A stretch of DNA of 50,833 nucleotides, taken from assembly GCA_016282315.1 (NCBI GenBank), contig JAEEKG010000014.1, forward strand, positions 1-50,833, read 5' to 3'. The notes under the pieces are model-generated. The model made no database searches. It had not been told where the DNA came from and was given only the letters and a program-made list of their open reading frames with translations. Numbering within the stretch: position 1 is the first letter of the stretch; each line of letters begins with the position of its first letter. Positions 1-40,459 of this stretch are shown here, piece by piece. This DNA comes from Clostridiales bacterium (GTDB lineage Bacteria > Bacillota > Clostridia > Oscillospirales > CAG-272). The translations under genes were made by a program, and so were the position numbers.

Positions 1-339
1 AAAGAGACCGATGACTGGTGTTTCAAAAAAATAAACGGCTATGTGAGCAATTACACTCGCGGTGGTGAAAACTGTTATCAGGCATACGGTATTTCGTATT
101 GGAACCAAGAGGATTCAGAAAGATTGAAAAAAGACTTGTTGAAAGTATATAACTCAAGAGCAGGGCATGAATATCTCTGGGAAGATGTGCCTCTCAAAGT
201 TTTGAAGAAAAACTACAAAATTGAGGTCAGAGAAATCAATAAGTCAGATATAGCTGAAATTGATACTTTCAATGAATTGATATCAGTTGATTCTTCATAT
301 GAAAAATATCCTGGATATGAAGGATTTATCGTTCACTGA
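1..339 (+). CDS. LicC-like NTP transferase (CTP:phosphocholine cytidylyltransferase-type), 3' part only
   Basis: Frame is open from base 1 (KETDDWCF...). The motifs GISYW, YLWEDVP and EIDTFNEL resemble the C-terminus of LicC-family nucleotidyltransferases. Confidence 0.65.
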   Translation, partial: KETDDWCFKKINGYVSNYTRGGENCYQAYGISYWNQEDSERLKKDLLKVYNSRAGHEYLWEDVPLKVLKKNYKIEVREINKSDIAEIDTFNELISVDSSYEKYPGYEGFIVH

Positions 340-364
340 AGATTATTAATATCACAAAAGCAAA

Positions 365-400
365 GGAGCTGTTTAAACCATTTTAGGTTTAAACAGCTCC
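365..400. terminator. Intrinsic terminator between convergent genes
   Basis: Perfect 15-bp inverted repeat GGAGCTGTTTAAACC / GGTTTAAACAGCTCC with a 6-nt loop. Confidence 0.8.
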
Positions 401-434
401 GCGTTTCTATTTCTGCAAGAAATGGTTATAAGGT

Positions 435-773
435 TCAATCCTGTTTTTCCGTTTCTTCTTTATTATCATTTTCTGTTTGATTTGTTGTTTCATCAACAGT
501 AGATTCTGTATTTACTGAATCATCAGTGATGACTACATCTTCTTCAACAGTTTTATTTTTGTTTTCATCTATGTTTAAAGTTTTCGATACTTTTTTTCTG
601 AACTTTCTCCACAAAACAATGAACACAGCGCCACCAGCTATTACAACACCTGCAATTGCTTGTACAAGATATGTAACAACTGAAGGATCAAGGTAAGCAA
701 ATGAAACTACCTGAAAAATGAGTGCTAAAGATATTGCACAGATAATAGAATAAATAACTTTTATTTTTTTCAT
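435..773 (-). CDS. Small membrane protein with YLDP motif (signal peptide, TM helix, basic patch, acidic tail)
   Basis: 112 aa. MKK plus hydrophobic stretch ending VSFA|YLDPS, second hydrophobic helix, WRKFRKK, then an E/D/T-rich tail. AGGA SD, 10 bp after the upstream stop. Confidence 0.8.
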   Translation of the reverse strand: MKKIKVIYSIICAISLALIFQVVSFAYLDPSVVTYLVQAIAGVVIAGGAVFIVLWRKFRKKVSKTLNIDENKNKTVEEDVVITDDSVNTESTVDETTNQTENDNKEETEKQD

Positions 774-783
774 ATGACAATCC

Positions 784-2847
784 TTACTGCTTTTTGGCTT
801 TTGATACTAAACTGTTCAAAATGTATTTTACACCATTTGCACCGCAGTTGTCAAAGTCATATACGGTTTCATTGAGTGCATTTGTAATCGATTGTCTGTA
901 TTCTTCTTGAGAATTAAGCAGTTTTTCAACGCTAGGAAGTATTCCTTCTTTATCATCTTTTTCAAGAACAATACCAACTTTGCTTCTCAAAGATATTTCA
1001 ACTGGAGTAAGTCCCAGTTTTTCCCAGTTCTGGTTCAACATCTTTAATTTAGTATTAAAGAACAAAACAGGTTTTTTAGTTGCGAAACTATATTCGTAAG
1101 CAATACCTGACCAATCGGTAATCAAAAGGTCGGATTGGTAAATAGAAGAGTTTTTCGAAAAGTCAGTTTCAAATGTTAATATTGAAGAATCAATGTTTGA
1201 ATACTTTTCAATCAAACGCTGCATCTTCTCGCCAAATCTTTTTACGTATTCAGGATGCGGTCTGACTATAACATGGAATTTTCCATTGCAAAGGGAAGAG
1301 AGCAGATTGTCTATGCAGCTGTCGAGCAGGTTGTCTTCCTGCCATGACGGAGCAATCAAAATCTCGGGGATTTCATGCTTTTCTTTATCCATTTGCTCGT
1401 ATGATTCGGTCAGTTTGTTCAAGAAAGGATAGCCGAATTCAACAATTGTTTTTTCTTTGGTGTTGTACATCTTTTCCATAGCTCTTAGTTCTGTATAAAG
1501 ATGTGGACCTGCAGCAAAGAATGTATCAAAGTTGTTGAATGCTCCTTCTCTGAAACCCATATGTGCGCTCATCATGTCATGAGGTACATAAATATATTCT
1601 ATGTCTTTTTTAACAAGGGATCTCTTTAAGAACAAATTGTCCAGATCAGGAGTGGTCATAACAACAATATCAGCTTCCATTTTCATCATCATAGGAATTA
1701 ATTTGTTTATTCCTATGTAATATGGCTGAATTTGTTTATTTGTTTTGGCAAGTTCAAAAATCTTATCATTCGGATCATTTGTGATGTAGTGAATGGTAAC
1801 ATTGGATTTTGAAATAATGCCGTTAATCAATGTGTCGTAATATTTGAAGAATCCGCTCTTTTCAGAGTAGAAAACAAGATGCTTGTTGATGACGCTGAAG
1901 AATCTCTTGTAATCAGCTCTTTCACGCTTTTTGTATTCTTTATTGTTGTCATCGGTTTTAGCAAAAGATTTTAAATCGCTTAATTTCTTTCTGCTCTTTT
2001 CGAGTTCTTCTTTATCCACCTTTTTCCATGGATTGATTATGAGGTTCAAAACTAATTGAACAACAACAGCCAATACGTTGCTGCAAACCCAATAGAGTGC
2101 AACACCTGTATAAACAAAGAATCCGAGGATGAGTGAAACGCCAACTGAAATAATTGTCACTCCGTATTTGTTCAAGGCAGATTGTTCTTTTTGAAGAACG
2201 TTGAGAGCGTTTTGTGCTAAGCACATCAAAAATGAGGAAACACCAGCTATTACGGGAACTAATATATAGATTCCCATTACTTCGCTTGGCACCACATTCA
2301 AGCTGAAACCAAGACATGTCAGATCAAATGCTTTGATGCTTTCAATTGCGGACAGAGCTCCGGAGGACAGGGCAGAAGTGGATATTTTTCCCTGCGCTAT
2401 AATGTCCATGATTGCCAATTGATCTTCTCTGAAATCAGAAACATTACAAGCACTTGCAAGTTCTCTTACAATTTCATCCGGCAATTTCAATGCATATGTG
2501 AGAGGTTCCTTGATGATATAAACCACTCCCATGAGCAATATTATTTGAATGATCAAAGGAATAACCGATGCGAAAGGATTGTATCCTGCTTTTTTATACA
2601 GCTTTGTTTGTTCTTCGGCAATTCTTTCCTTGTCGCCGTAAAATTCTGCTGTCGCATAGTTAATGCTTGGCTGAATCTTGACCATTTTTATTGAATTGAC
2701 ATGCACCCACAATGAAACGGGCATAAGAATTATCTTAGTAAGCAGAGTAAAGAATACAATTGCGAGAGCATAGTTTCCTACTACTGTCATAGATAATTGC
2801 ATTAACCAGCCAAGCGGAATGCATATATAGTGCATTATTGTTCCCAT
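784..2847 (-). CDS. YidC/Oxa1 insertase domain fused to CDP-glycerol glycerophosphotransferase (TagB/TagF-like) domain
   Basis: N-terminal YidC hallmarks (AIVFFTLLTKIILMP, KIQP, KLYKKAGYNPF, PLIIQ, ALYWVCSN). C-terminal TagB/F-like motifs (YVPHD, GYPFL, ILIAPSW, VRPHP, SDLLITDWSGIAYEY, KPVLF). Confidence 0.85.
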   Translation of the reverse strand: MGTIMHYICIPLGWLMQLSMTVVGNYALAIVFFTLLTKIILMPVSLWVHVNSIKMVKIQPSINYATAEFYGDKERIAEEQTKLYKKAGYNPFASVIPLIIQIILLMGVVYIIKEPLTYALKLPDEIVRELASACNVSDFREDQLAIMDIIAQGKISTSALSSGALSAIESIKAFDLTCLGFSLNVVPSEVMGIYILVPVIAGVSSFLMCLAQNALNVLQKEQSALNKYGVTIISVGVSLILGFFVYTGVALYWVCSNVLAVVVQLVLNLIINPWKKVDKEELEKSRKKLSDLKSFAKTDDNNKEYKKRERADYKRFFSVINKHLVFYSEKSGFFKYYDTLINGIISKSNVTIHYITNDPNDKIFELAKTNKQIQPYYIGINKLIPMMMKMEADIVVMTTPDLDNLFLKRSLVKKDIEYIYVPHDMMSAHMGFREGAFNNFDTFFAAGPHLYTELRAMEKMYNTKEKTIVEFGYPFLNKLTESYEQMDKEKHEIPEILIAPSWQEDNLLDSCIDNLLSSLCNGKFHVIVRPHPEYVKRFGEKMQRLIEKYSNIDSSILTFETDFSKNSSIYQSDLLITDWSGIAYEYSFATKKPVLFFNTKLKMLNQNWEKLGLTPVEISLRSKVGIVLEKDDKEGILPSVEKLLNSQEEYRQSITNALNETVYDFDNCGANGVKYILNSLVSKAKKQ

Positions 2848-2850
2848 ATA

Positions 2851-4563
2851 TTACTTGTACAGGCTCCCTATATTTGTGTCTTTTGTAATTGTCCAGTTGT
2901 CAAAATTTCTTCCATCACCATTGATTGTGTATTCAATGATATGAGTACCATCATCTAAAGTGCACTGGAATTTGTTAATTCTTACTGCATTTTCTCCATC
3001 ATGCATTTCCCAATATGCTTTTCCATAATCTTTTTCGGTTTTTAATCCCGTGGATTTAACTATAGAAGCAAGCAAGTTTGCTTGTGATACTGGTTCTGTA
3101 GATACTTTGAAAGCGGAATGCTCATTGGCCTGTTTTACAAACAGAGCTGTAATTCTAGGCTCAGCGGGCATCTTTGTATCGCTTCTAGCTCTTGGGTGAT
3201 CCCCTGTTATTATGATTGTTGAATTGTCATATACACCAAGGCGTTTCAGTTCACTGATATACTCGTAAATAGCTTTGAAGCAACCGAGAGTGTTAAGTCT
3301 TGAAGAGCCTTTTCCTTCTTCAACTTCCTGGCAGTTTTCGTCCATTGTAGATGGATCGTGACAGCCGTGTAAGTGAATGAATGTGTATGAGTTTTCTGCG
3401 TTGTCCAAAGTCAGTCCTTCATCCAGAACACTTTGACAAAATTCAACATTCGAATCATTCAAGTATACAGGGAAGACTTCATCGTAAGAGATGAACTTGC
3501 TGAAACTTGTGGTCGATACTTTTACCACATCTTTGAGTACGATTGGCAGGTATCTGTATATAGACAATTCTAACATTGTCCATGCAAGTCCCCAGGAGTC
3601 ATTTATTATCATGTCACCTGATTGCGGTTGAACATTATATGCTCTCTTCAAAGCAGCAGCTTCTCTGTATGAGTAGTAACTTCCTGTATATACTTTAACT
3701 CTGTAATTGTTTGCTTCCAAGTCATCAAGAAAGTCTGAATTGTTATAAGCATAATTGAAATATTCAGATGCTGTCTTTGAAAAGTCTGTGTCAACTCCCG
3801 TCACCATTGTTGCTATTGCAGGATAAGTTCTAGCATACAGTGCAACATTATCTAAGTATAGGGTGAAATCTTCGAGCTGATTGAAAAACTCTGGGTCTTT
3901 TTCAACTACGTCTTCATAGTATGAAATATCAAATCTATCAAGTACTAAGACTATAACATTTTTGTTCTTTGATACTTCGTACAATCCTTTTGTGGTCAGA
4001 ATGTATCCGGCATCATTTGTGATGTCCAACCCCACTTTTTCAAGTTTGTTTGAATAGTCAATTGACTCGGATACTAAAGCTGCACCTTGCATTCCTATTA
4101 GTAAGACGCAAAGGAAAATTGATATTGTTTTTATCAACTTAATCTTTTTCATCATTATGAATGCATAGATGATTCCGCCCAAAAGAAGAATCCATATTGC
4201 AGTGTCAAGTATTACAAACCAAACTTCAGGTGTTGACCCTACATCATCGGATTTAAGTGAATTAACACCTATGTTCAGGAAATTCCCTTGTATGTAACCA
4301 ACAACGGCTAGGCCAAAGAAAACACCATTCAGAATTCTACCAACTATTCCCGGAACAAATATCAATACCAGTGCAAGTACAGCAAATATTATTAACGAAA
4401 TAGCTATAAGAGGCCATATAAAGTGTGAAAGTCCGAAAACCAATTCTTCGCTATTTGAAATGTATATTTCATAAGTACCGAAGAACAAGGTGAAACTGAA
4501 TATAAAAGCCGTAAATATTGGTAAAACAATCGGTCGTTTTTCTTTCATGGATTTGCCTTTCAT
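2851..4563 (-). CDS. Membrane-anchored alkaline phosphatase/sulfatase-superfamily (LtaS/EptA-like) enzyme
   Basis: About 5 N-terminal TM helices, then NVIVLVLDRFD, YARTYPAIATMVTG (Thr nucleophile position), HLHGCHDP and IITGDH metal-ligand motifs. The start may be a few codons downstream. Confidence 0.8.
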   Translation of the reverse strand: MKGKSMKEKRPIVLPIFTAFIFSFTLFFGTYEIYISNSEELVFGLSHFIWPLIAISLIIFAVLALVLIFVPGIVGRILNGVFFGLAVVGYIQGNFLNIGVNSLKSDDVGSTPEVWFVILDTAIWILLLGGIIYAFIMMKKIKLIKTISIFLCVLLIGMQGAALVSESIDYSNKLEKVGLDITNDAGYILTTKGLYEVSKNKNVIVLVLDRFDISYYEDVVEKDPEFFNQLEDFTLYLDNVALYARTYPAIATMVTGVDTDFSKTASEYFNYAYNNSDFLDDLEANNYRVKVYTGSYYSYREAAALKRAYNVQPQSGDMIINDSWGLAWTMLELSIYRYLPIVLKDVVKVSTTSFSKFISYDEVFPVYLNDSNVEFCQSVLDEGLTLDNAENSYTFIHLHGCHDPSTMDENCQEVEEGKGSSRLNTLGCFKAIYEYISELKRLGVYDNSTIIITGDHPRARSDTKMPAEPRITALFVKQANEHSAFKVSTEPVSQANLLASIVKSTGLKTEKDYGKAYWEMHDGENAVRINKFQCTLDDGTHIIEYTINGDGRNFDNWTITKDTNIGSLYK

Positions 4564-4689
4564 TGTTTGAAATATATACTAATTAGACTTAACTACAAAT
4601 TTATAATCTCATACTTATTTAAATAATATGACGCGCACTCGTATATTATAACCAAAAAGAGTAAATTATCAATAGTTTTGCAAATAAGA

Positions 4690-6915
4690 CTAGATTACGA
4701 AAGTGTTGCTGGAAAATCTTGATTCTATTTCGTAGCCTCTCAATTTATCGAGTGCAAAGGCCTTCTTGAGAAGGGAAGGTTTTATATAAGGATCAAATTT
4801 ATCACTTCTAAGCAACTCGCTTTCTCCAACAAGTTCAAATGTATCTATAGGAGTGAGTCTCTTGATTAAACTGCAAATGCTGTTAAATAGAGTTGAACAT
4901 GATTCATCACTTTTGAATGTAATATAGAAACAACCATTGTGTTCAACGTCATAGATTTTCAGAGTTGATGCATACTTTTTCAAAATTCTGACAAGTGTTG
5001 CATTGCTTCTTGTACCAAGCCATGGGAACATGACTCTGTTCATGCCGCCAAGAGAAATAATCATGTTGTCCTTTATTCCTATATTCTGAGCAAGTATTCT
5101 GGCGGATTCAAGTCGTCTTTGTGCTTGTTCCTTCAGATAGGGAAGACTGATGTCAGAAGTTAGGATTTTATATATGTTCTCCATAATCTTCGTATCAACT
5201 TCGCCAAAATCACCGGGCCAGGATATTTCCATTTTTCCTTCTATTTGCTTTACAAATATCATTTTTCTAGCTAGATCCAGATCTGTAACTTCCCACACTC
5301 TGCCTGCCAAAGCGAACCTTTCGCCGATAGGATGTGGAGTTGAAATGGTGCCTATTTCCTGGCTCTCGCTTTTTACGGAAAAATCGTTTGAATCTTTGAA
5401 CACAGCATAGAATTTAAAGCTCTTTAATAATTTTTCTCCTTCGATTCCAATCAGGATTGATCCGTCGGGTTCAAGTTCCAAAAACTTTCTTTTACACATA
5501 TCAACAACAAGTTCTCTGTAATCTTCCTTGTCCACATGGCTGAAAGGAGATAGCGAAAGAACTCTTCCGGCTAGTTCAGAAGGTTTTAATTCACCCGAAG
5601 TAGCCAGTATTGACAGTGTTTGGTGGAACAATAAACTCAAAGGAAGTTTCTTTATGTATGGAGGTTCAATAAATCTTTCCTTTATGTAGACATCAATAAT
5701 TGATGCGCCTCTCAAAAGTTCCCATGGAATTAAATCCTGAATCGGAGTGTCCGGAAGAGGGTATTCTTCTCTGAATACCATGAACATCTCCGGAGCTCCA
5801 CCTCTTCTGCCGCTTCTGCCAAGTCTTTGCAGAAAACTTGATACTTTAGCCGGAGAATTAATGTGGACAATTCGATCAAGTCTTCCTATATCCACTCCGA
5901 GTTCAAGTGTAACGGTGGCACAAGTTGAAATCATTTCTTCATCGTTTTTTAGCTTTTGTTCAGATTCTTCTCTAATTGATGCTGAAAGATTACCATGGTG
6001 AATATAAAAAATGTCCTTATCATTTCTCAGAGATGCTATCTGGTGCATGGTTTCGCATACATATTCTGTTTCTTCACGCGAGTTTGAGAAAATAATGGTT
6101 TTTTTCTGAGTTGCACAATCGTAGATGTACTCGTATCCACTATCTATTGCCACATAGTCTTTATTGGGGTTTTGAACTTCGGGATTCGCGATGTTTTTGT
6201 CATCCTGAATATAAAAATGCTCTAATGCCAGATTCCAGGATGTCTGGGAATCTTTAAAAACAGGAGCAATTGTATTTCTTCCTGAATTGCCTTCTAGCCA
6301 TTTACAAGCTACTTCAACATTTCCGATAGTTGCAGATAAACCTATTCTGCGAGGTTGACGACCAATAAGTTTTGCGATTCTGTCGATTTGACATATAACT
6401 TGTGATCCGCGATCTACACCCATCAGTGTGTGTATTTCATCGATGACAATGTACTTTAGTCCGCCAAATAATCTCAAGATATCTGAGTATCTGTTAATCA
6501 AAAGACTTTCGACAGATTCCGGAGTTATTTGCAGAATTCCCTGAGGGTTCTCCAACAGTTTTGTTTTTCTTGATTGAGACACATCTCCGTGCCATCTGCA
6601 TACAGGTATGCCTGAATTATCCAATAATTCATCAAGCCTATAGAACTGGTCATTGATAAGGCTTTTTAATGGCGCAATATATAATACCTGTACAGAGTTG
6701 TCAGGGTGATCAATAATATCTGTTATTATGGGAAAGAATGCTGCCTCGGTTTTTCCTGATGCAGTGTTTGAACACAAAATCAAGTTGTCATCTGTGTTGA
6801 ACAAAACATCTGCGGCTGCAGTTTGAACAGGGCGGAGTTCTTCCCATCCCATTTTGTAAATGAATTCTCTGACAAGAGGGCAGTATTTTTCAAAAACAGT
6901 GTTTTCGTTTTCCAT
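4690..6915 (-). CDS. Lhr-like SF2 DEAD/DEAH helicase (resembles Shango SngC-type helicases)
   Basis: GWEELRPVQ, TASGKTEAAF, PLKSLINDQ, ITPES, DEIH, GLSAT, HHG, TLELGVDIG, QRLGRSGRR. ATG at 6915 follows an AAGGGA SD. Confidence 0.85.
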   Translation of the reverse strand: MENENTVFEKYCPLVREFIYKMGWEELRPVQTAAADVLFNTDDNLILCSNTASGKTEAAFFPIITDIIDHPDNSVQVLYIAPLKSLINDQFYRLDELLDNSGIPVCRWHGDVSQSRKTKLLENPQGILQITPESVESLLINRYSDILRLFGGLKYIVIDEIHTLMGVDRGSQVICQIDRIAKLIGRQPRRIGLSATIGNVEVACKWLEGNSGRNTIAPVFKDSQTSWNLALEHFYIQDDKNIANPEVQNPNKDYVAIDSGYEYIYDCATQKKTIIFSNSREETEYVCETMHQIASLRNDKDIFYIHHGNLSASIREESEQKLKNDEEMISTCATVTLELGVDIGRLDRIVHINSPAKVSSFLQRLGRSGRRGGAPEMFMVFREEYPLPDTPIQDLIPWELLRGASIIDVYIKERFIEPPYIKKLPLSLLFHQTLSILATSGELKPSELAGRVLSLSPFSHVDKEDYRELVVDMCKRKFLELEPDGSILIGIEGEKLLKSFKFYAVFKDSNDFSVKSESQEIGTISTPHPIGERFALAGRVWEVTDLDLARKMIFVKQIEGKMEISWPGDFGEVDTKIMENIYKILTSDISLPYLKEQAQRRLESARILAQNIGIKDNMIISLGGMNRVMFPWLGTRSNATLVRILKKYASTLKIYDVEHNGCFYITFKSDESCSTLFNSICSLIKRLTPIDTFELVGESELLRSDKFDPYIKPSLLKKAFALDKLRGYEIESRFSSNTFVI

Positions 6916-6936
6916 AGAGTGTCCCTTCATTAGATA

Positions 6937-6965
6937 AAAACTGCCCAAACTAGTTGGGCGGTTTT
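6937..6965 (-). terminator. Terminator-like hairpin between the carboxypeptidase and helicase genes
   Basis: AAAACTGCCCAA-actag-TTGGGCGGTTTT, with a U-tract on the minus strand. Confidence 0.6.
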
Positions 6966-6985
6966 CTTGTGTGTGTTTTAATGGA

Positions 6986-8098
6986 TTATTTTACTATTGT
7001 AATAATGAATCCGCTTACGTTATCACCTGAAACTGTGTACATGCCGGATGTCACACCACTTTGAGAAACAAATGAATTAACTTGTTTGCCATTTTCAGGA
7101 ACGCTTATATAAGTTCTTGTGCTTGTTGTGTCAGCAGGTACGTAGTAAACGTAGTATTCTTTTCCATCAACGGTGCATTCATAAGGTGTTTCAGTATGAG
7201 TCTTAATCATGTCAATATATTCTTCAAGACAAAGATCTTCTTTTGTCATGATATCTGCTGCAACAGAGTCAACGAATCTTACGTGTCCTGTTTCAGCTGC
7301 CAAACCGGTGATTTCTTTTTTATCTTTTGTGAATCTGACTACAAAGCCATATTTTGCTGAATTCTCTTCAAGCCATTCACTCTGAAGAGCAGGGAGATCA
7401 GCTGTCTTTCCATCTTTTGTGAATACTGCAAGGTATACAGACAAGCCTGTATGATAATCACTGCATCCAGCTGAACTAGCTGATGAGTCTGAAGTCTTGA
7501 TGTTTTGTTGGTTATCATATGTTCTGTATGCGTATTTGATCAGTATCTTGTTTGACTCATAATAATCAGAGAATTCTGATTTGAGACCAGAACAGAGTTC
7601 CTGAAGATTTGTAACAACAGTTTTGCTGAAATAGTATCCAACTGCGCCTGGAAGAACGAAATAAGAGCCTCTGCTTTCGTAAAGATCGGTAAGGGAACTG
7701 CCTTTAACCATGCTCTGAGGGAATGTGAATTCGTGATCTTCGTTTACAAGTACCTGGTAACCTTCAAATTGTTTGTTTGTTTCAACAGCAATTTGTGTAT
7801 AACCTTTTTGCCAAGCGGGAGCCGGCGTGGTTGTCTCGGTTGTTTCAGTGCCGCTTGTTGTAACAGTAGTACTGGATTCGGTTGTATTATCTTGTTTTGA
7901 AGAATTTCTTATTGCATGGACCACCATGACAATAATCAGTACTATGGCAAGTATGATAAGCACTACCTCAATTAGTGCAATCATTCCTTCTTTATTTGGT
8001 TTAAATCTTTTCTTGCCTTTTTTGGGTTTATTTGACTTTGTACTGGTCATCTCTGTATCTGTATCTTCATATTCGAAGTCATCTTTGTATTCAGACAT
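6986..8098 (-). CDS. Membrane-anchored M15B (VanY/LdcB-like) carboxypeptidase
   Basis: One TM helix, Thr-rich linker, then LVN, AYRTY, SDYHTGL, WLEENSAKYGFVVRF and ETGHVRFV motifs. Confidence 0.8.
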   Translation of the reverse strand: MSEYKDDFEYEDTDTEMTSTKSNKPKKGKKRFKPNKEGMIALIEVVLIILAIVLIIVMVVHAIRNSSKQDNTTESSTTVTTSGTETTETTTPAPAWQKGYTQIAVETNKQFEGYQVLVNEDHEFTFPQSMVKGSSLTDLYESRGSYFVLPGAVGYYFSKTVVTNLQELCSGLKSEFSDYYESNKILIKYAYRTYDNQQNIKTSDSSASSAGCSDYHTGLSVYLAVFTKDGKTADLPALQSEWLEENSAKYGFVVRFTKDKKEITGLAAETGHVRFVDSVAADIMTKEDLCLEEYIDMIKTHTETPYECTVDGKEYYVYYVPADTTSTRTYISVPENGKQVNSFVSQSGVTSGMYTVSGDNVSGFIITIVK

Positions 8099-8269: not shown

Positions 8270-10360
8270 TTATTGAAGTGCATCTTTTCTTGAAAGATTG
8301 ATTCTGCCTTTATCATCAATGCCAAGATACTTAACTGTAATCTTGTCACCTACATTAACAACATCTTCAACTTTTTCTACTCTTGATTTGTCAAGTTTTG
8401 AAATGTGTACAAGGCCTTCTTTTCCAGGTGCGATTTCAACAAATGCGCCTATTGGAATGATTCTTGTTACAGTTCCTGTGTAATTGCAACCTTCAACTGG
8501 TTCAAAGCAAATAGCATCAATAATGCCCTTTGCAGTGTAAGCATCGTCTCTGTTGACTGCCTGAATGAAGATTGAACCGTCTTCTTCAATATCAATCTTG
8601 GTGTTGGTTTCAGTTGTGATCTTCTGGATAACTTCGCCGCCTTTACCAATAACTTCTCTGATCTTGTCAGGATTGATTTTAAGAGTAACGACTTTAGGTG
8701 CATATTCGTTGACATCTGGACGTGGAGCATCAATTGCTTTAAGGATTATTTCATCAATGATGTAATCTCTTGCTTTGTGTGTCTTTGCCAATGCAGCTTT
8801 AATGATTTCCGGTGTAAGACCATCAATCTTAAGGTCCATCTGAATTGATGTTATACCTTTGTGTGTTCCTGCAACTTTAAAGTCCATATCGCCATAGAAG
8901 TCTTCAACACCCTGGATATCTACCATTGTGTCCCAAGAACCATCTTCAGCTGTAATAAGACCACATGAAATTCCTGCAACCGGAGCTTTGATCGGAACGC
9001 CTGCAGCCATAAGTGCAAGTGTGCTTCCGCATACAGAACCCTGTGAAGTAGATCCGTTAGAAGAGAGAACTTCAGATACAACTCTAATTGTGTATGGGAA
9101 TTCTTCTCTGGATGGAAGTACAGGAATCAATGAACGTTCAGCAAGTGCGCCATGTCCTATTTCACGTCTACCGGGTGAACGAACAGCTTTAGCTTCGCCT
9201 GTTGAGTAACCAGGCATATTGTACTGGTGAATGTAGTATTTTTCTTTTTCTTCATCAAGACCATCAAGAATCTGAGCGTCGCTGAATGAACCAAGTGTAA
9301 CAATTGACAATACCTGTGTCTGACCTCTTGTGAACAATCCTGAGCCGTGAACTCTTGGAAGAACATCAACTTCAGCAGCAAGTGGACGAATCTGGTCCAT
9401 AGCTCTTCCGTCAACTCTCTTCTTGTCTACGAGTAACCATCTACGAACAATCTTCTTCTGAATCTTGTAGATGAGTTCCGGAAGAATAACTTCGATGTCA
9501 GGATACTCTTCAGCATAATCAGCAACGATTCTGTCCTGGATAGGCTGCATTCTTGCATCACGTACATTCTTGTCGTCAGTATCAAGAGCGAATTCTACAT
9601 CTTTTTCAACTGCAGCAAAGATTTTGTCGAACATGTCGTGATCGAGTTCGCCTGATGGATACTCAAATTTCGGTTTGCCTATTTCATCAACGATGCTGTT
9701 TATGAACTTAAGAAGTTTGCCGATTTCTTCATGTGCAAGCATGATAGCATTGAACATTGTCTCATCATCAACTTCATTAGCGCCTGCTTCAACCATTACA
9801 ACTTTCTTTTCGCTGGATGCAACTGTGAGTTGGAGATCACTCTTAAGTCTCTGTTCAGCTGTTGGGTTAATAACGAGCTGTCCGTCAACCAAACCAACAT
9901 AAGCGCCGCCTATTGGGCCGTTCCACGGTATGTCAGAAATTGACAATGCAATTGAAGCACCGATCATAGCTGTGATTTCAGGTGAACAATCAGGATCAAC
10001 TGCCATTACTTCAAGAGTAAGAGCAACGTCGTTTCTCAGATCTTTCGGGAAAAGAGGACGAATTGGACGATCGATTACACGGCTTGTAAGAATTGCCTTG
10101 TCGCTTGGTTTTCCTTCTCTTCTTTGATAGCTGCCGGGAATTCTTCCGACTGCATACAGTTTTTCATCATAGTCAACTGAAAGAGGCAAGAAATCAATTC
10201 CTTCTCTTGGTTTGGCAGATGCTGTAGCACAACAGAGAATAACTGTGTCGCCATAGTGAATCATGACTGAACCATTTGCAAGTCCTGCAACTTTGCCTGT
10301 TTCAACCTTTAAAGGTCTTCCTGCGTATTCATATTCGAATACTCTGTAGTTTTCAAACAT
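8270..10360 (-). CDS. pnp: Polyribonucleotide nucleotidyltransferase (PNPase)
   Basis: Two RNase PH domains (FLPLSVDY, SRVIDRPIRPLFP, RREIGHGALAER, SNGSTSQ, GDMDFKVAGT) plus KH and S1 domains. ATG at 10360 follows AGGAGG. Confidence 0.98.
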   Translation of the reverse strand: MFENYRVFEYEYAGRPLKVETGKVAGLANGSVMIHYGDTVILCCATASAKPREGIDFLPLSVDYDEKLYAVGRIPGSYQRREGKPSDKAILTSRVIDRPIRPLFPKDLRNDVALTLEVMAVDPDCSPEITAMIGASIALSISDIPWNGPIGGAYVGLVDGQLVINPTAEQRLKSDLQLTVASSEKKVVMVEAGANEVDDETMFNAIMLAHEEIGKLLKFINSIVDEIGKPKFEYPSGELDHDMFDKIFAAVEKDVEFALDTDDKNVRDARMQPIQDRIVADYAEEYPDIEVILPELIYKIQKKIVRRWLLVDKKRVDGRAMDQIRPLAAEVDVLPRVHGSGLFTRGQTQVLSIVTLGSFSDAQILDGLDEEKEKYYIHQYNMPGYSTGEAKAVRSPGRREIGHGALAERSLIPVLPSREEFPYTIRVVSEVLSSNGSTSQGSVCGSTLALMAAGVPIKAPVAGISCGLITAEDGSWDTMVDIQGVEDFYGDMDFKVAGTHKGITSIQMDLKIDGLTPEIIKAALAKTHKARDYIIDEIILKAIDAPRPDVNEYAPKVVTLKINPDKIREVIGKGGEVIQKITTETNTKIDIEEDGSIFIQAVNRDDAYTAKGIIDAICFEPVEGCNYTGTVTRIIPIGAFVEIAPGKEGLVHISKLDKSRVEKVEDVVNVGDKITVKYLGIDDKGRINLSRKDALQ

Positions 10361-10395
10361 AATTTCCTCCTGTTTGATAAATATATTTCTCAACC

Positions 10396-10478
10396 CATGG
10401 AGGTTTTGTTTAGCACTTAATTAAAAGTCCAAATGTTTCAGGCTCTTAATTAATTGCTATACAACCCCTCTGCCCATG
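10396..10478 (-). promoter_or_regulatory. Long imperfect stem-loop in the pnp leader (candidate RNase III site)
   Basis: GAGG..TTGT-TAGCA-TTAATTAA pairs with TTAATTAA-TGCTA-ACAA..CCTC between rpsO and pnp. Confidence 0.55.
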
Positions 10479-10528
10479 AGTAAAAAGACAAAAAGTGAAA
10501 TGGGACGGAAAAAACCGCCCCTTACATA

Positions 10529-10792
10529 TTACTTTCTCAAACCAAGTTTTTCGATGATTGCACGATAACGTGTAATATCTTTCTTCTGGAGATATGCGAG
10601 AAGATTTCTTCTCTTACCGATCATTTTAAGCAAACCTCTACGGCTATGCTTATCCTGAGGGTTTACAGAAAGATGCTCATTAAGATGATTGATTCTTTCT
10701 GTCAAAAGAGCGATCTGAACTTCAGGAGAACCTGTATCGCCTTCGTGTTTTTGGTTTTCAGTAATAATTTGCTGCTTGAGTTCTTTTTCCAT
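10529..10792 (-). CDS. rpsO: 30S ribosomal protein S15
   Basis: [32 protein letters not shown] at 10792 follows GAGGTGA. Confidence 0.98.
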
Positions 10793-10794
10793 TT

Positions 10795-10897
10795 TTGTCA
10801 CCTCGTAGAATAATTATTTGCCTAAGAACGAAGTGTTGGAGGGTGACATTGTCTCTTTAAGACCATGGTTCCAAAACTGCGCTCCCGGTTAACAGCA
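10795..10897 (-). promoter_or_regulatory. Probable S15 autoregulatory leader
   Basis: About 100-nt 5' UTR with nested pairings (GGGAGCG/CGTTCTT, TTGGA/TCCAA) between the promoter and rpsO, where Firmicutes S15 leaders sit. Confidence 0.55.
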
Positions 10898-10903
10898 ATC
10901 GCT

Positions 10904-10932
10904 ATTATATCAATGTTTTTTTTTCTTGTCAA
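10904..10932 (-). promoter_or_regulatory. Sigma-A promoter of rpsO-pnp
   Basis: Consensus TTGACA-N17-TATAAT on the minus strand. Confidence 0.85.
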
Positions 10933-11056
10933 CATATAATTATTAAATATATAGCGTTTTTCTTTTATATGGAAAAGTGTTGAATTTGTATGGTCATAGT
11001 TGTAAAATTACATTGTTATAAATCCGTATTGCGGAAAAGAAAGAGGTAATAATATT

Positions 11057-11992
11057 ATGGCACTTGTTACAACAAAAGAAATGTTCAAAAAGGCATACGA
11101 TGGTCATTACGCTATAGGCGCTTTTAACGTAAACAACATGGAAATCGTTCAGGGAATAACAGAAGCAGCTAACGAGCTCAGAAGCCCTGTAATTCTTCAG
11201 GTAAGTAAAGGCGCAAGAGCATATGCAAATCATACATATCTTGTAAAATTGGTTGAGGCTGCAGTTCACGAGACAGACATCCCGATCGCACTGCACTTGG
11301 ATCATGGTCCGGATTTTGAAACATGTAAATCATGCATTGACGGTGGATTTACATCAGTTATGATAGATTTCTCAAGTCATCCATATGAGGAGAACATCAA
11401 AGAAACAAAGAGAGTAGTTGAGTATGCTCACGCTCACGGAGTTGTTGTTGAAGCTGAACTCGGAACACTTGCAGGTGTTGAAGATGAAGTTAAAGTTGAA
11501 GAGGGTATGAGTTCATACACTCGTCCGGAAGAAGTTCAGGACTTTGCTGAAAGAACAGGTTGTGACTCACTTGCAATTGCAATAGGAACAAGCCATGGCG
11601 CATACAAGTTTAAACCAGGCACAAAACCACAACTCAGATTCGACATTCTTGAAGAAGTATCAAAGAGATTGCCGGGATTCCCGATAGTTTTACACGGCGC
11701 ATCCAGCGTTCCACAGGAATTTGTAAAAATCATAAACAATTACGGCGGCAAAATGCCAGACGCAATTGGTGTTCCTGAAGAAATGTTGGCTCAGGCAGCT
11801 AAGATGGCTGTGTGTAAGATCAATATCGACTCAGACATTAGACTTGCTATGACAGCTTCAATCAGACAGTATCTGACAGAACATCCAGCAGACTTTGATC
11901 CACGTCAATATCTCAAACCGGCTCGCCAAGCTGTTAAAGATATGGTTAGCCACAAGATTGTTGATGTTTTGGGTTCAAACAACAAAGCTTAA
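11057..11992 (+). CDS. fba: Class II fructose-1,6-bisphosphate aldolase
   Basis: GAFNVNNME, ALHLDHG, GFTSVMID, VEAELG, GTSHGAYK, VLHGAS, KINIDSD, FDPR. Confidence 0.97.
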   Translation: MALVTTKEMFKKAYDGHYAIGAFNVNNMEIVQGITEAANELRSPVILQVSKGARAYANHTYLVKLVEAAVHETDIPIALHLDHGPDFETCKSCIDGGFTSVMIDFSSHPYEENIKETKRVVEYAHAHGVVVEAELGTLAGVEDEVKVEEGMSSYTRPEEVQDFAERTGCDSLAIAIGTSHGAYKFKPGTKPQLRFDILEEVSKRLPGFPIVLHGASSVPQEFVKIINNYGGKMPDAIGVPEEMLAQAAKMAVCKINIDSDIRLAMTASIRQYLTEHPADFDPRQYLKPARQAVKDMVSHKIVDVLGSNNKA

Positions 11993-12006
11993 GAAAAATC
12001 TTTTTT

Positions 12007-12045
12007 ACTGTGATAGGCACTCAAAGCTTATCACAGTTTTTTTTT
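12007..12045 (+). terminator. fba terminator
   Basis: ACTGTGATAGGC...GCTTATCACAGT stem followed by a T-run. Confidence 0.8.
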
Positions 12046-12116
12046 GCAACAATATTTATAAATATAAAAATATATGTTGCACAATTGCATATTTTGTGGT
12101 AAAAAGAAAGAACAAA

Positions 12117-12239
12117 GATAGAGGCGCGGCCGACAAGATTACTCAGTATGGGGAAAGGGGAAGCTGCCGAAGGTGATTATTGTCTCCTGGGCGTACGGAG
12201 AATATCCGTGCGACTGTCGCATTATTGCGGAGAGCTATC
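12117..12239 (+). ncRNA. Lysine riboswitch aptamer (compact variant)
   Basis: GATAG-AGGCGC...GAAAGG...GCCGAA...CTGGG, P4 CGTACGGA-GAATA-TCCGTGCG, ACTGTC, P5 CGCA-TTAT-TGCG, GGAGAG-CTATC. Located directly upstream of the lysine biosynthesis operon. Confidence 0.88.
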
Positions 12240-12273
12240 ATGTGATTATTAATACAATTATGTATTTTTGAAC

Positions 12274-12308
12274 ATGATGGCTGCATTTCTTGCAACCATT
12301 ATTTTTTT
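12274..12308 (+). terminator. Riboswitch expression-platform terminator
   Basis: ATGATGGCTGCA-tttct-TGCAACCATTAT followed by a T-run, just before the dapA SD. Confidence 0.7.
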
Positions 12309-12319
12309 GGAGAAAAACT

Positions 12320-13207
12320 ATGAAAAAAGAAACTATATTCAAAGGCGCAGCAACTGCAATTATCACTCCTTTAAACGAAAACGGAGTGGATTTTGACAGA
12401 TTCGGAAAACTACTTGATTGGCAAATTGAAGAAGGAATAGATGCTCTTGTAATATGCGGAACCACTGGCGAAGGCGCAACTATGAGTCAGTCTGAATATG
12501 AAGCGACAATAGACTATGCAGTTAAAAGAATAAACAAAAGAGTTCCTGTTATCGCCGGAGCTGGTTCAAATAACACATCTAGAGCTATTGAGATGACAAA
12601 GTATTGCTGCAGTGTAGGAGCAGATGCAATATTGTCTGTTACTCCTTTTTACAACAAGACAACTCAGTTGGGTCTTGTAAAGATGTACACGGAAATTGCA
12701 AAGGCTTCAACTAAACCGGTTGTACTGTACAATGTTCCGTCAAGAACGGGAATAAACATAGAACCTGAAACATATCTTGAACTATCCAAAGTTGACAACA
12801 TATCAGCTATAAAGGAAGCCAATGGAGACTTGTCAAAGATTATCAAGACAATGTCTTTAGTTGAAGATAAGCTTGATGTCTATTCTGGAAATGATGATCA
12901 GGCTTATTCCGTAATGTCTTTGGGTGGAAAAGGTGTCATTTCTGTTTTGTCTAATGTTGTTCCAAAAGAGACTGCTTTGATGTGCAAGAAGTTCTTTGAA
13001 GGCGATTACGAAGGGGCTAAACAATTGCAATTCAAATATCTTAACCTGATATCTGCATTGTTCTCTGAGACAAATCCGATTCCGGTCAAAGCTGCGATGG
13101 CAAAAATGGGATTTTGTGAGAACTATCTTAGACTTCCGCTTATTGAGATGAGTGAAGATAAGAAAGCTAAAATGTTCAGCATAATGAAAGAACTAGGATT
13201 GATTTGA
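12320..13207 (+). CDS. dapA: 4-hydroxy-tetrahydrodipicolinate synthase
   Basis: GTTGEG, PVIAGAGSN, TPFYNK, LYNVPSRTG, IKEA, YSGND, ETNPIPVK. ATG at 12320 follows GGAG. Confidence 0.97.
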   Translation: MKKETIFKGAATAIITPLNENGVDFDRFGKLLDWQIEEGIDALVICGTTGEGATMSQSEYEATIDYAVKRINKRVPVIAGAGSNNTSRAIEMTKYCCSVGADAILSVTPFYNKTTQLGLVKMYTEIAKASTKPVVLYNVPSRTGINIEPETYLELSKVDNISAIKEANGDLSKIIKTMSLVEDKLDVYSGNDDQAYSVMSLGGKGVISVLSNVVPKETALMCKKFFEGDYEGAKQLQFKYLNLISALFSETNPIPVKAAMAKMGFCENYLRLPLIEMSEDKKAKMFSIMKELGLI

Positions 13208-13215
13208 GGTACGTT

Positions 13216-13950
13216 ATGAAAGTAATTGTTCATGGTGCAAAAGGGCACATGGGTCAAATAACAACAGATCTTGTAAAAAAAGGATATGACGGAGCTATAT
13301 TTGCAGCTGCAGTTGACGCTTTTTCTGAAGACAAAGATGTATACAAAAGCTTAAATGACGTAACTGAAAAAGCAGATGTCGTAATAGATTTTTCTCATCA
13401 TTCTGCTACCAAGGCTGTGTGTGATTATTGCAAAGAAAAAAACATTCCTGTTGTAATAGCAACAACAGGACAGAACGAAGAAGAAAAAAAGATAATAGAA
13501 GAAACTTCAAAGACAATTCCTGTTTTCTTTTCAGCAAACATGTCAATAGGAATAGCAGTACTGGCTAGTTTTGCTAAACAGGCAGCTGCTATGATGAAAG
13601 ATGCAGATATAGAAATAGTTGAAGTTCATCACAACAGAAAACTTGATGCTCCAAGCGGAACAGCTTTGCTTTTAGCTGAAGAAATAAAAGAATCAAGACC
13701 CGAAGCCAGAATTGTTTGCGGCAGAAACGGACAGCAAAAAAGAGACCAGAATGATATAGGTATTAACTCTGTAAGAATGGGAAATGTTGTCGGGATACAT
13801 GAAGTTTACATATCTTCACCAACTCAGACAATAACTCTTAAACACGAGGCTCACGACAGAGCATTGTTCTCCGAAGGGGCTATCAAGGCAGCTGAGTTTG
13901 TGGTTACTAAGCCTGCCGGATTATACAACATGAAAGATTTGCTGGTGTAA
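13216..13950 (+). CDS. dapB: 4-hydroxy-tetrahydrodipicolinate reductase
   Basis: GAKGHMG, DVVIDFS, ATTG, SANMSIG, EVHHNRKLDAPSGTA. Confidence 0.96.
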   Translation: MKVIVHGAKGHMGQITTDLVKKGYDGAIFAAAVDAFSEDKDVYKSLNDVTEKADVVIDFSHHSATKAVCDYCKEKNIPVVIATTGQNEEEKKIIEETSKTIPVFFSANMSIGIAVLASFAKQAAAMMKDADIEIVEVHHNRKLDAPSGTALLLAEEIKESRPEARIVCGRNGQQKRDQNDIGINSVRMGNVVGIHEVYISSPTQTITLKHEAHDRALFSEGAIKAAEFVVTKPAGLYNMKDLLV

Positions 13951-36682: not shown

Positions 36683-36694
36683 ATAATATCTCCG

Positions 36695-37759: not shown

Positions 37760-37768
37760 GATTCACCT

Positions 37769-39436: not shown

Positions 39437-39465
39437 CCCACGCCCTCCTAATTTTTGATAAATCA

Positions 39466-39495
39466 ATTATATATTTTATTATAAGAAAAAGTCAA
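39466..39495 (-). promoter_or_regulatory. Putative sigma-A promoter of the SPFH-ATPase operon
   Basis: TTGACT-N18-TATAAT on the minus strand. Confidence 0.55.
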
Positions 39496-39505
39496 TCAAC
39501 ACGCG

Positions 39506-39535
39506 AAAAAAACAGGTCTTTTCAGACCTGCTTTT
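39506..39535 (-). terminator. Terminator after the NYN gene
   Basis: CAGGTCT-tttc-AGACCTG flanked by A7 on the plus strand. Confidence 0.7.
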
Positions 39536-39540
39536 CAAGG

Positions 39541-40287: not shown

Positions 40288-40459
40288 AGTCCTAAGCAAC
40301 CTCCTTCTTTTAGAATTGTCTTTTACGACAAGACAATTTTAACACACGGAATGAAGTGTTGCAATGATTCGTTATATTTTTTTCCCTCTTTAATTGAAAG
40401 TACTACTAATTTATGATATCATGTCTATAATATTTATGGGTATCAGATGAGGTTGTACC

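Follow-up and report, generated by a model that had tools for sequence, protein, structure and literature searches.

Three neighbouring genes of a Clostridiales bacterium encode membrane proteins, P0001, P0002 and P0003, that are conserved as a trio in gut bacteria and that probably decorate the cell surface with a phosphocholine-like group, through an uncharacterised route. They lie in a stretch of 50,833 nucleotides, here called the window. The functional link among the three is well supported, and it is very likely that they form one functional unit; that they work as one membrane machine, which would take a phospho-alcohol head group in CDP-activated form and couple it to an acceptor outside the cytoplasmic membrane, is a proposal to which, taken as a whole mechanism, we give a probability of about 0.5. 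The head group in this genome would most likely be phosphocholine, or else the phosphate or phosphonate of a related amino-alcohol. This reading draws on the domain identities of the proteins, their catalytic-type residues and compatible topologies, on near-obligate synteny and Rosetta-stone fusions, and on linkage to CDP-amino-alcohol supply.

Layout of the locus and architecture of its products

In the ORF list the genes for P0001 (2851..4563, 570 aa), P0002 (784..2847, 687 aa) and P0003 (435..773, 112 aa) follow one another on the minus strand, and inspection of the junction sequences gives gaps of 3 bp (2848-2850) and 10 bp (774-783). A sigma-70-like promoter candidate (TTGATA, 16 nt, TATAAT; 4645..4672, minus strand) lies about 80 nt upstream of the P0001 gene and is the top site in positions 1-7200 with 11 of 12 consensus matches, the call being a consensus match only, as the scan total of 32 is not clearly higher than that of shuffles (25.4 ± 5.0). 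A bidirectional intrinsic-terminator-like stem-loop (365..400, both strands; 15 pairs, seven of them G-C, a loop of 6 and T-runs on both strands) separates the trio from a converging operon, of which the window holds the 3' end of an HTH-LicC-type cytidylyltransferase gene (1..339, plus strand, 112 codons). Terminator-like sites in the whole scan were not above shuffles (6 versus 4.4 ± 2.0), so this stem-loop counts by position alone. The initial annotation had described three co-oriented genes with these two gaps, a terminator and a converging LicC-like gene, all of which the ORFs, junctions and stem-loop confirm, and its naming of the products as an LtaS-like enzyme, a YidC::polyol-phosphate transferase fusion and a YLDP miniprotein is borne out by Pfam and by residue positions.

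P0001 begins with five hydrophobic helices preceding a Sulfatase domain (PF00884, residues 201-506; Pfam, 31.7 bits, cut-off 25). Its AF2 model (pLDDT 89.1, pTM 0.85) matches PbgA (6XLP, 6.4e-11), LtaS (2W5R), MCR-1 (9NWW) and EptA (5FGN) in Foldseek, and the protein is accordingly modelled as five TM helices with an extracytoplasmic alkaline-phosphatase-superfamily domain of LtaS/EptA/PbgA-like type. Its nearest solved relative by sequence is LtaS (2W5Q, E 0.0014), in an alignment spanning the GDH motif. Residues D209, T246, H397, H402, D455 and H456 are invariant in 57 sequences, and D209, T246, D455 and H456 are of catalytic type, which suggests competence; T246, and the His residues, were mapped onto the catalytic residues of LtaS and TagF by motif position. 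LtaS takes its head group from phosphatidylglycerol and EptA from phosphatidylethanolamine. GacH is described in PMC8327497 as adding glycerol phosphate to a wall polysaccharide. P0001 is like LtaS, GacH, EptA/MCR-1 and PbgA in its 5-TM architecture, its fold, the LtaS-aligned GDH metal motif and a nucleophile position that is invariably Thr. It differs in requiring an additional N-terminal Y-x-D-P helix that carries a cytoplasmic motif, present as a separate partner or in the same chain, and in its constant pairing with a YidC::TagF gene; its Pfam score is weak and no NCBIfam model matched it.

P0002 is matched by Pfam to 60KD_IMP over residues 26-268 (97.6 bits, cut-off 35) and to Glyphos_transf over residues 388-601 (49.2 bits, cut-off 22.1); TIGR03592 scores 97.5 bits against a cut-off of 84.3, and the profile of the protein matches solved YidC structures at E 1e-15 to 6e-12. 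Together with an AF2 model (pLDDT 86.3), this predicts a YidC/Oxa1 insertase-fold membrane domain, a basic helical linker and then a cytoplasmic TagF-like GT-B phosphotransferase domain; the pTM of the model is only 0.60, too low to fix how the enzyme sits with respect to the groove. The YidC domain (2044..2772, minus strand, from Pfam and the AF2 model) runs in the order TM1, cytoplasmic hairpin, TM2, an outer insert of about 75 aa and TM3-5, and K38 in TM1 is Lys in 65 of 66 sequences and Arg in one. The TagF-like domain (residues 310-687; 787..1920, minus strand, from Pfam and Foldseek) has TagF (3L7I-M, 2.4e-10), Cps3D (8QOY), TarL (8VA1) and Bcs3 (8A0C) as its best Foldseek matches. Invariant in 66 sequences are H353, H423-D424, H449, P500-S501-W502, R529-P530-H531-P532, T577-D578-W579-S580 and E585, and the His, PSW, RPHP and TDWS motifs among these suggest catalytic competence. 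The domain is like TagF/TarF/TarL and the TagF-like capsule polymerases (PF04464) in its HMM match, GT-B fold, His-containing motifs and predicted cytoplasmic location, but it is covalently joined to a YidC membrane domain, it matches none of the solved chains at the level of sequence, those of TagF type included, and the gene context of the trio points to a CDP-amino-alcohol, not to CDP-glycerol or CDP-ribitol. A choline-type head group cannot be polymerised.

With YidC, SpoIIIJ and YqjG (PF02096, TIGR03592), P0002 shares the five-helix core, the cytoplasmic hairpin and the basic residue of TM1, but it is a second paralogue with an enzyme in place of the C-terminal tail, it does not lie beside jag, and its YidC domain is tied, by gene order or by fusion, to envelope phosphotransferases. 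The housekeeping yidC-jag pair lies separately on contig C21 of the same genome; the two YidC domains are 21% identical and colinear, and no feature distinguishing them was found, the TM1 Lys and the TM2-TM3 insert being common to both. That likeness favours a reading in which the YidC fold serves only to keep the TagF-like enzyme membrane-bound and to seed a complex. A lipid-linked precursor would then be decorated by the TagF-like domain on the cytoplasmic side and exported by an unlinked transporter of the Wzx/MurJ or TagGH type, and the LtaS-like enzyme would use another donor, such as phosphatidylglycerol. TagF-type enzymes are peripheral membrane proteins with cytoplasmic action, some loci have ABC-2 transporter and LCP genes (L152), and the polysaccharide locus of this genome has a MurJ-like flippase, all of which fit. 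In a pure anchor, however, one would not expect the entire YidC core, invariant polar groove residues included, to be kept as well as the enzyme is (conservation 0.75-0.77 in the core, 0.69-0.78 in the enzyme domain), nor the domain to be linked across two phyla and drawn into a four-module fusion, and in most loci no transporter gene is consistently linked to the core; we consider this reading rather unlikely.

P0003 has no Pfam family above cut-off. A signal-like hydrophobic N-terminus leads to Y27-L-D29-P, directly ahead of the single membrane helix at its outer face, and past the helix come a basic cluster, the conserved cytoplasmic motif L-x-I-D-E-N-x-x-K-x-V-E and an acidic tail. Y27, D29 and K74 are invariant in 69 sequences, and R56, K59, L66, I68, D69, N71, V76 and E77 are kept in at least 90% of them.

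Co-occurrence and fusion of the modules

Gene-neighbourhood analysis had been put forward in the initial annotation as the check on the trio, with a failure to co-occur in other genomes as the outcome that would speak against it, and strong co-occurrence was found. Among 80 species-genome loci, 71 could be tested with at least 2 kb of upstream sequence and 74 with at least 700 bp downstream; in 66 of the former a co-directional sulfatase-fold gene lies directly upstream of the fusion, and in 71 of the latter a miniprotein gene lies directly downstream, so the arrangement exceeds chance. The module was seen in three gene orders, with two kinds of fusion and in two phyla. Chance adjacency of unrelated envelope genes, in whose favour stands nothing but the weakness of the Pfam matches to P0001 and the TagF-like domain, is hardly credible in view of these synteny counts, gene orders and fusions and was rejected.

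The miniprotein profile has 705 cluster representatives at E <= 0.001. The best 150 matches include 18 proteins of 674-744 aa, every one with a Sulfatase match at E <= 0.001 and 15 of them above the Sulfatase cut-off. P0254, in which the miniprotein module is N-terminal, is 27% identical to P0001 over 564 aa (E 2e-49), and a YidC::TagF gene lies directly upstream of 35 of the 42 mini-sulfatase fused genes that have at least 2.3 kb of upstream sequence. All four modules are joined in one uninterrupted metagenome ORF of 1387 aa (L120), in the order YidC, TagF-like, mini and sulfatase, where a hydrophobic segment ahead of Y-V-D-P keeps the topology consistent. These Rosetta-stone fusions, of which those joining miniprotein and sulfatase come from other lineages than the window's, indicate, beyond what the initial annotation had seen, that miniprotein and sulfatase-fold enzyme go together.

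The fusions also bear on a reading, likewise raised at the outset, in which the YidC paralogue is a dedicated insertase that inserts or folds its own partners, the N-out/C-in miniprotein and the multi-span LtaS-like enzyme, and the other domains do the enzymology. Membrane insertion is the established function of YidC, and P0003, with its short translocated N-tail, one helix and basic C-flank, is a classic YidC-only type of substrate. Yet a catalytic insertase need not be stoichiometric, and here a single polypeptide (L120) and fixed 1:1 gene sets are seen; a housekeeping YidC is present in the genome, and with the miniprotein fused to a sulfatase or bearing a signal-like segment no special need for an insertase is evident. 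We regard this reading as distinctly improbable.

Cytidylyltransferases, importers and the supply of a head group

The product of the ORF at 1..339 has by itself no Pfam match, but related loci encode HTH-LicC proteins whose C-termini share 40-48% identity with it. The first 141 bases of the window exactly overlap the reverse-complement end of contig C94 of the same genome, so the gene continues on that contig, which carries an ABC importer and two LicC copies converging on the trio. There HTH-LicC is in frame with the ABC permease, with no stop between them (ORF 1..2388 of L085), and LicC1, a full-length paralogue, matches S. pneumoniae LicC (PDB 1JYK) over the whole catalytic domain at E 1.1e-27. 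Among solved proteins, the best relatives of the importer SBP are of the Fe3+/AfuA type or bind PLP; of the NCBIfam models, PhnS2/T2/U2 fit the importer best, though below cut-off.

HTH-LicC lies downstream in 19 of 35 fully flanked genome loci, 15 of which also have an ABC importer, all co-directional, and LicC linkage recurs in 7 of the 17 loci of a second well-flanked set; it is missing in 16 and 10 loci, respectively. In one sample of 201 genomes, a LicC1 relative (E <= 1e-20) occurs in 5 of 9 fusion-positive and 10 of 192 fusion-negative genomes, and one of the four fusion-positive genomes lacking it has a 639-aa LicC-like ORF 3.4 kb from the fusion. Metagenome loci hold LicC::choline/ethanolamine kinase, LicC::aminotransferase, EutH and a choline-binding-repeat protein. 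The recurrent neighbours (HTH-LicC, LicC fusions, organophosphate-type ABC importer) suggest that a CDP-activated amino-alcohol is made. The earlier association of the trio with LicC and phosphodiester decoration thus gains from the recurrence of LicC, its fusions and the importer, and falls short of being universal (19/35 and 7/17 loci, 5/9 genomes).

About half of the loci have no LicC nearby, and P0001, whose nearest solved sequence relative is LtaS, is the only sulfatase-family match in the genome of the window. Both observations favour an LTA-type pathway, in which the TagF-like domain primes a glycolipid with polyol phosphate, P0001 polymerises glycerol phosphate from phosphatidylglycerol outside, and LicC and the importer serve other pathways. 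A TagD-type CDP-glycerol synthase was, however, not found in this genome, the module is patchy (of the 200 other genomes sampled from the order, 8 have it), unlike a core LTA pathway, and the genes for LicC, kinase and importer all point the same way and frequently belong to one gene string, so that such a pathway appears decidedly doubtful here.

Related trio loci share with the Lic pathway (LicA/B/C/D) a LicC-type enzyme, LicC::choline/ethanolamine kinase fusions, to which the LicCA fusion of Treponema denticola may be likened, and the choline-binding-repeat protein. They differ in that LicD is outside the conserved core, the places of LicB and LicA are taken in the Clostridia by an organophosphate-type ABC importer, and the LicC near the trio has an N-terminal winged-helix domain. 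Among the loci examined, LicD was seen only at L160; the one LicD of the window's genome, in a separate polysaccharide locus, could consume CDP-choline.

A possible route to the cell surface

For the preferred reading, that of a single membrane machine, we infer the donor, the lipid intermediate, flipping by YidC, the acceptor at the end of the route and the way in which the tail docks as follows. The AfuA/PhnS2-like ABC importer and the HTH-LicC cytidylyltransferases would supply CDP-X, with choline/ethanolamine kinases in place of the importer in other lineages, and the cytoplasmic TagF-like domain of P0002 would use CDP-X to load a membrane lipid, the acceptor, with X-phosphate. Two points count against this: known TagF-family enzymes use CDP-glycerol or CDP-ribitol, not CDP-choline, and to our knowledge the known phosphocholine transferases are LicD enzymes. 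The hydrophilic groove of the fused YidC-fold domain, by thinning the bilayer, could then let the charged head group reach the outer leaflet; E. coli YidC scrambles glycerophospholipids in vitro, according to a preprint (bioRxiv 10.1101/2023.09.01.555937). P0001, with its Thr nucleophile and metal site, would take the phospho-head group from the lipid and pass it to a wall polymer, a lipid-anchored polymer or a protein, and P0003 may be a detachable sixth helix of P0001 whose conserved cytoplasmic tail ties P0001 to P0002. The build, translocate and transfer pathway first suggested for these genes is in part supported, its logic fitting the predicted topology, and our literature search likewise found no characterised example of such a system.

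The closest parallels in logic are GtrA/B/C and CsbB/GtcA/YfhO, three-component systems that load, flip and transfer. For GacI/J/L and the lactococcal systems, PMC8327497 describes a lipid carrier that is loaded by a cytoplasmic enzyme and flipped by a small membrane protein, and an outward-facing enzyme that transfers the cargo. The trio would have in common with all of these a carrier loaded inside, flipped and used for transfer outside, but they move sugars on undecaprenyl phosphate with GT-A, GtrA-like and GT-C proteins, whereas the components of the trio are all of other families and the proposed cargo is a phospho-head group.

Architecture of the three-gene module

The window is the entire contig C35 of a 1.9-Mb genome bin (110 contigs, 38% G+C), and at its left end three minus-strand ORFs lie in a row. 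They encode an LtaS/EptA-like enzyme (P0001, 570 aa, 4563-2851), a fusion of YidC to a TagF-like domain (P0002, 687 aa, 2847-784) and a miniprotein with a Y-x-D-P motif (P0003, 112 aa, 773-435), with gaps of 3 bp between the first two and 10 bp between the last two. Two flanking signals are consensus matches only, namely the strongest promoter-like site in this region (TTGATA, 16 nt, TATAAT; 4672-4645, minus strand) and, at 365-400, a stem-loop of 15 bp that has T-runs on either strand. The upstream neighbours are housekeeping genes, encoding a DEAD-box helicase, VanY and PNPase. Elsewhere in the window, three tandem SPFH/Band_7 genes adjoin an NYN-domain gene (35732-40299), and a Band_7 gene is also found immediately downstream of the module in two related loci (L012, L020). 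The SecE ORF at 27628-28278 is 216 aa long with its SecE domain confined to residues 153-205, reflecting either an unusual N-terminal extension or an ORF call extended too far.

P0001 is the sole sulfatase-family gene found in its genome (PF00884, 31.7 bits against a cut-off of 25). Its AF2 model (pLDDT 89.1, pTM 0.85) predicts five N-terminal membrane helices (13-36, 49-69, 72-96, 114-137 and 141-181) followed by an α/β domain, the predicted extracytoplasmic domain of the alkaline phosphatase superfamily, and in Foldseek searches it matches full-length PbgA, MCR-1 and EptA as well as the LtaS and LtaP domains. The only solved relative found by sequence is LtaS (E 0.0014), with an alignment that spans the GDH metal motif. 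Residues D209, T246, H397, H402, D455 and H456 are invariant in 57 orthologues, a pattern characteristic in sequence of metallo-phosphotransferases with a threonine nucleophile, which from its place in the family motif would be T246. None of the NCBIfam models searched, including the curated LtaS and Ept equivalogs, matched P0001 at E ≤ 0.1, which argues for a distinct LtaS/EptA subfamily.

The N-terminal part of P0002 is a YidC domain by both PF02096 (97.6 bits, cut-off 35) and TIGR03592 (97.5 bits, cut-off 84.3), and its profile matches solved YidC chains with E values of 1.3e-15 to 5.7e-12. Helices are predicted at 26-40, 42-68, 73-87, 95-113, 192-215, 224-244 and 247-270, and the model has the five-helix core, cytoplasmic TM1-TM2 hairpin and basic TM1 residue expected of the YidC/Oxa1 family. 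The usual basic groove residue of TM1 in this family is Arg; here it is K38, which is Lys in 65 and Arg in one of 66 sequences. A second, housekeeping yidC followed by jag is located on contig C21 of the same genome, and its product is colinear with the fused domain at 21% identity, sharing the TM2-TM3 insert and a TM1 Lys that aligns with K38.

The second domain of P0002 is a Glyphos_transf domain (PF04464, 49.2 bits against 22.1, covering profile positions 75-296 of 367), for which a sequence search of the isolated domain against solved structures gave chance-level matches only. Its model has a GT-B fold, with TagF 3L7I-M taking Foldseek ranks 1-10 (E 2.4e-10 to 4.2e-9, TMt 0.52-0.55) and Cps3D, TarL and Bcs3 coming next. 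Four histidines (H353, H423, H449 and H531) are invariant in the 66 sequences and are candidates for the catalytic type of histidine named in PDB titles (H444 of TagF and H300 of TarL). Because the C-terminus of YidC is cytoplasmic, the TagF-like domain is assigned to the cytoplasm, the home of CDP donors. The arrangement of the two domains in the AF2 model (pLDDT 86.3, pTM 0.60) is uncertain.

Behind the signal-like hydrophobic start of P0003 comes Y-L-D-P and then a single helix with a basic cluster after it; the rest of the protein consists of a conserved motif on the cytoplasmic side and an acidic tail.

Distribution of the module and its gene fusions

The fusion is widespread in public databases: both Pfam domains are present in all of the best 120 matches listed, and those that have a name are called 'membrane protein insertase YidC'. 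In the species-genome collection it has 432 matching stretches, and the 80 records fetched from this set have titles of Clostridia-type gut or rumen bins, with one exception labelled Sphaerochaetaceae. The initial annotation anticipated that sulfatase-fold and YLDP genes would accompany such fusions, and this was borne out: among those of the 80 loci with sufficient flank, 66 of 71 have a relative of P0001 as the next gene upstream, in the same orientation (the exceptions being L037, L059, L062, L063 and L078), and 71 of 74 have a relative of P0003 directly downstream (absent from L051, L073 and L081). The 668-aa 'mini' ORF of L081 was considered as a sulfatase fusion and rejected, as it reads through into a phosphoglucomutase-like gene (10053-12059); L075, a close relative, has miniprotein and phosphoglucomutase-like protein encoded separately. 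Distribution is patchy, the TagF-like part being present in eight of 200 other genomes of the order, each time inside ORFs of 628-740 aa. Near-identical DNA occurs in ruminant gut metagenome runs from several studies. Contigs of four metatranscriptome runs, each from a different study, match parts of each of the three genes, none spanning a gene junction by 31 letters on each side; these matches indicate presence in RNA libraries only, with DNA carry-over possible, and not an operon transcript.

The components also occur joined in Rosetta-stone fusions. A profile of the miniprotein matched 705 cluster representatives (E ≤ 0.001) out of 1.84 billion proteins, mostly of 60-150 aa. Within the best 150 of these, 18 are 674-744 aa long with the miniprotein module at the N-terminus, and every one of them also matches Sulfatase (15 above the cut-off, three below); one example, P0254, is 27% identical to P0001 over 564 residues (E 2e-49). 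Three further members of the best 150 fall off this pattern, namely P0192 (HATPase_c), P0246 (AP_endonuc_2) and P0260 (6335 aa, 13 stretches). According to a language-model atlas, which gives leads and not alignments, the mini::sulfatase forms belong mainly to Actinomycetota, and YidC::TagF proteins occur in that phylum as well as in Bacillota.

A metagenome scan with the fusion queries gave 80 loci, of which 40 hold YidC::TagF together with mini::sulfatase and 11 hold YidC::TagF with a separate miniprotein, often then followed by one to three sulfatase paralogues. YidC::TagF is directly upstream of 35 of the 42 fused mini::sulfatase genes with at least 2.3 kb upstream, the seven exceptions being an ORF-calling overlap (L093), a divergent arrangement (L098), a split gene (L135) and four loci with no fusion in view. 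In L120 all four modules form one unbroken 1387-aa ORF. A hydrophobic segment precedes its Y-V-D-P motif, so that an outward position of the motif is possible despite the cytoplasmic domain ahead of it; the basic/I-D-E-N segment that follows is then predicted to lie in the cytoplasm again, ahead of the sulfatase enzyme's first helix. We conclude that the three protein types work as one unit, in which the miniprotein serves the LtaS-like enzyme as an additional helix and cytoplasmic tail that can be detached. A translation-arrest function like that of MifM was set aside for the miniprotein, whose gene here comes after the YidC gene and before a terminator.

The four-module ORF of L120 is adjoined by genes for a 929-aa YidC-domain protein (9279-12065), of which the C-terminal ~700 aa gave no Pfam match at E ≤ 1e-5, and for a separate 421-aa Glyphos_transf protein (12081-13343), so that YidC fusions with other partners may exist. 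The module is also often amplified, a single locus having either two YidC::TagF genes or a tandem of two or three paralogues that encode the sulfatase-fold or mini::sulfatase protein (L025, L126, L129, L137, L143, L156, L169 and L170).

A putative build-flip-transfer pathway

The best-supported reading of the module is a build-flip-transfer machine. The TagF-fold domain would act as a cytoplasmic CDP-amino-alcohol phosphotransferase forming a lipid intermediate, the YidC-fold domain would be the built-in lipid flippase or conduit, its groove passing this intermediate across the membrane, and the Y-x-D-P helper helix, perhaps by docking of its tail, would couple the TagF-fold step to the outward-facing LtaS-like transferase, which would modify an acceptor in the envelope. 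The domain identities, the conservation of catalytic-type residues, a compatible topology, the obligate association of the components and the donor-supply setting are observed; the donor, the lipid intermediate, its flipping by the YidC groove, the acceptor and the docking of the tail are inferred from them. We give recruitment of the YidC fold as the built-in flippase or conduit of such a machine roughly one chance in three. In liposomes, purified YidC of E. coli scrambles glycerophospholipids (bioRxiv 10.1101/2023.09.01.555937), and this makes flipping by a YidC fold biochemically plausible.

Against this reading, the fused YidC has no special feature and the pTM of the P0002 model is 0.60. 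The YidC domain might instead be a mere anchor for the TagF-like enzyme, an explanation to be set beside the conservation of its core, where column identity across 66 orthologues (0.75-0.77) equals that of the enzyme domain (0.69-0.78) and many polar residues are invariant. It might also be a dedicated insertase for its partners. A third rival is that the TagF-like domain and P0001 form a primase/synthase pair of the LTA type.

A full-text literature search, with most subscription journals and supplements lying outside it, found no paper on a YidC::TagF-like fusion or such a pathway, in agreement with the initial annotation, which knew of no characterised example. Each part comes from a known family, and in its logic the module resembles three-component glycosylation systems (PMC8327497). 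With the fusion named merely as an insertase in databases, a whole putative envelope pathway has been overlooked in many Clostridia and Actinomycetota of gut and rumen. If true, the build-flip-transfer reading would be the first physiological example of an insertase fold given over to the movement of a lipid-linked head group. It would offer a natural setting in which to test the lipid scrambling by insertases recently seen in vitro, and would define a new LtaS/EptA subfamily requiring a separate helper helix. It would also mean that gut Bacillota and Actinomycetota have a LicD-independent route to decoration with phosphocholine, phosphoethanolamine or phosphonate, and a new way of placing phosphocholine-like groups on Gram-positive surfaces, groups that are of importance to host recognition, choline-binding proteins and phage receptors. 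As the module comprises at most three genes and is suited to heterologous expression, the question is directly testable.

Putative donor-supply genes near the module

The suggestion that lic genes would accompany the fusion held in part: a winged-helix::LicC gene is downstream of the core in 19 of 35 fully flanked genome loci and a LicC-type match is present in only seven of 17 well-flanked metagenome loci, with none in the remainder. This linkage in about half of loci counts against the build-flip-transfer reading. In one sample of 201 genomes, a relative of LicC1, one of two winged-helix LicC copies in the window's genome, was found in five of nine fusion-positive and 10 of 192 fusion-negative genomes, a contrast inflated by relatedness; one of the four fusion-positive genomes lacking it has a 639-aa LicC-like ORF 3.4 kb from the fusion.

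In 15 of the 19 loci there is also an ABC importer, in every case transcribed in the same direction. Its best models are those of the putative 2-aminoethylphosphonate transporter PhnS2/T2/U2, all scoring under the equivalog cut-offs (154.6 against 392.75, 307.2 against 457.7 and 339.1 against 593.25), and it is therefore regarded as a related transporter. The nearest solved relatives of its binding protein are Fe3+/AfuA-type and pyridoxal-phosphate-binding proteins, and AfuA binds sugar phosphates. That no kinase accompanies the importer suggests a substrate that is already phosphorylated, or a phosphonate.

The genome of the window has these genes too: C94 carries HTH-LicC1, the importer's binding protein and ATPase, and a permease that reads on in frame into HTH-LicC2. 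The end of this contig's reverse complement is identical to the first 141 bases of the window, so that by assembly-graph adjacency, the join itself being unproven, the importer/LicC operon converges on the module at the terminator. The PhnU2-like permease, in two halves (C94 1-2388, minus strand), runs stop-free into the winged-helix::LicC that continues over window 1-339, and the resulting permease::HTH::cytidylyltransferase ORF exceeds 796 aa; relatives such as L022 have permease and LicC genes that overlap but are read in separate frames. LicC1 resembles the whole catalytic domain of S. pneumoniae LicC (1JYK, residues 68-290 against 27-247, E 1.1e-27), its next solved match (E 1.9e-8) covering the N-terminal region only. 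The N-terminal winged-helix/MarR-like domain is seen on LicC-type enzymes at C94 4186-5073 and in L008, L042, L044, L111 and L149, and two such copies occur in this genome; the combination suggests an enzyme that doubles as a regulator.

Metagenome loci add fusions of HTH-LicC to a choline/ethanolamine kinase near the module (L101, L104, L119, L136, L149 and L157), LicC and kinase as separate genes (L141 and L148) and fusions of LicC to a class-I/II aminotransferase (L120, L158 and L160). Single loci contain EutH and a choline-binding-repeat protein (L101), LicD (L160), an ABC-2 transporter with LCP (L152) and a TPP enzyme of phosphonopyruvate-decarboxylase size (L149).

Known TagF-family enzymes use CDP-glycerol or CDP-ribitol, which counts against the build-flip-transfer reading. 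A search over five genomes gave no match to a TagD-type model in the window's genome, and this, together with the LicC-type genes nearby, argues for a CDP donor other than these two, such as the amino-alcohol donor that the build-flip-transfer reading would use.

Also weighing against build-flip-transfer, LicD lies in an unlinked polysaccharide locus of the same genome (C13 9000-28000) that has its own MurJ-like flippase. This locus further encodes an initiating sugar transferase, GT1 enzymes, NeuB, two UDP-GlcNAc 2-epimerases, a CMP-sugar synthase, an IspD-like transferase, a HAD protein and a weak TagF-like gene, and from this content it is a possible second consumer of CDP-choline.
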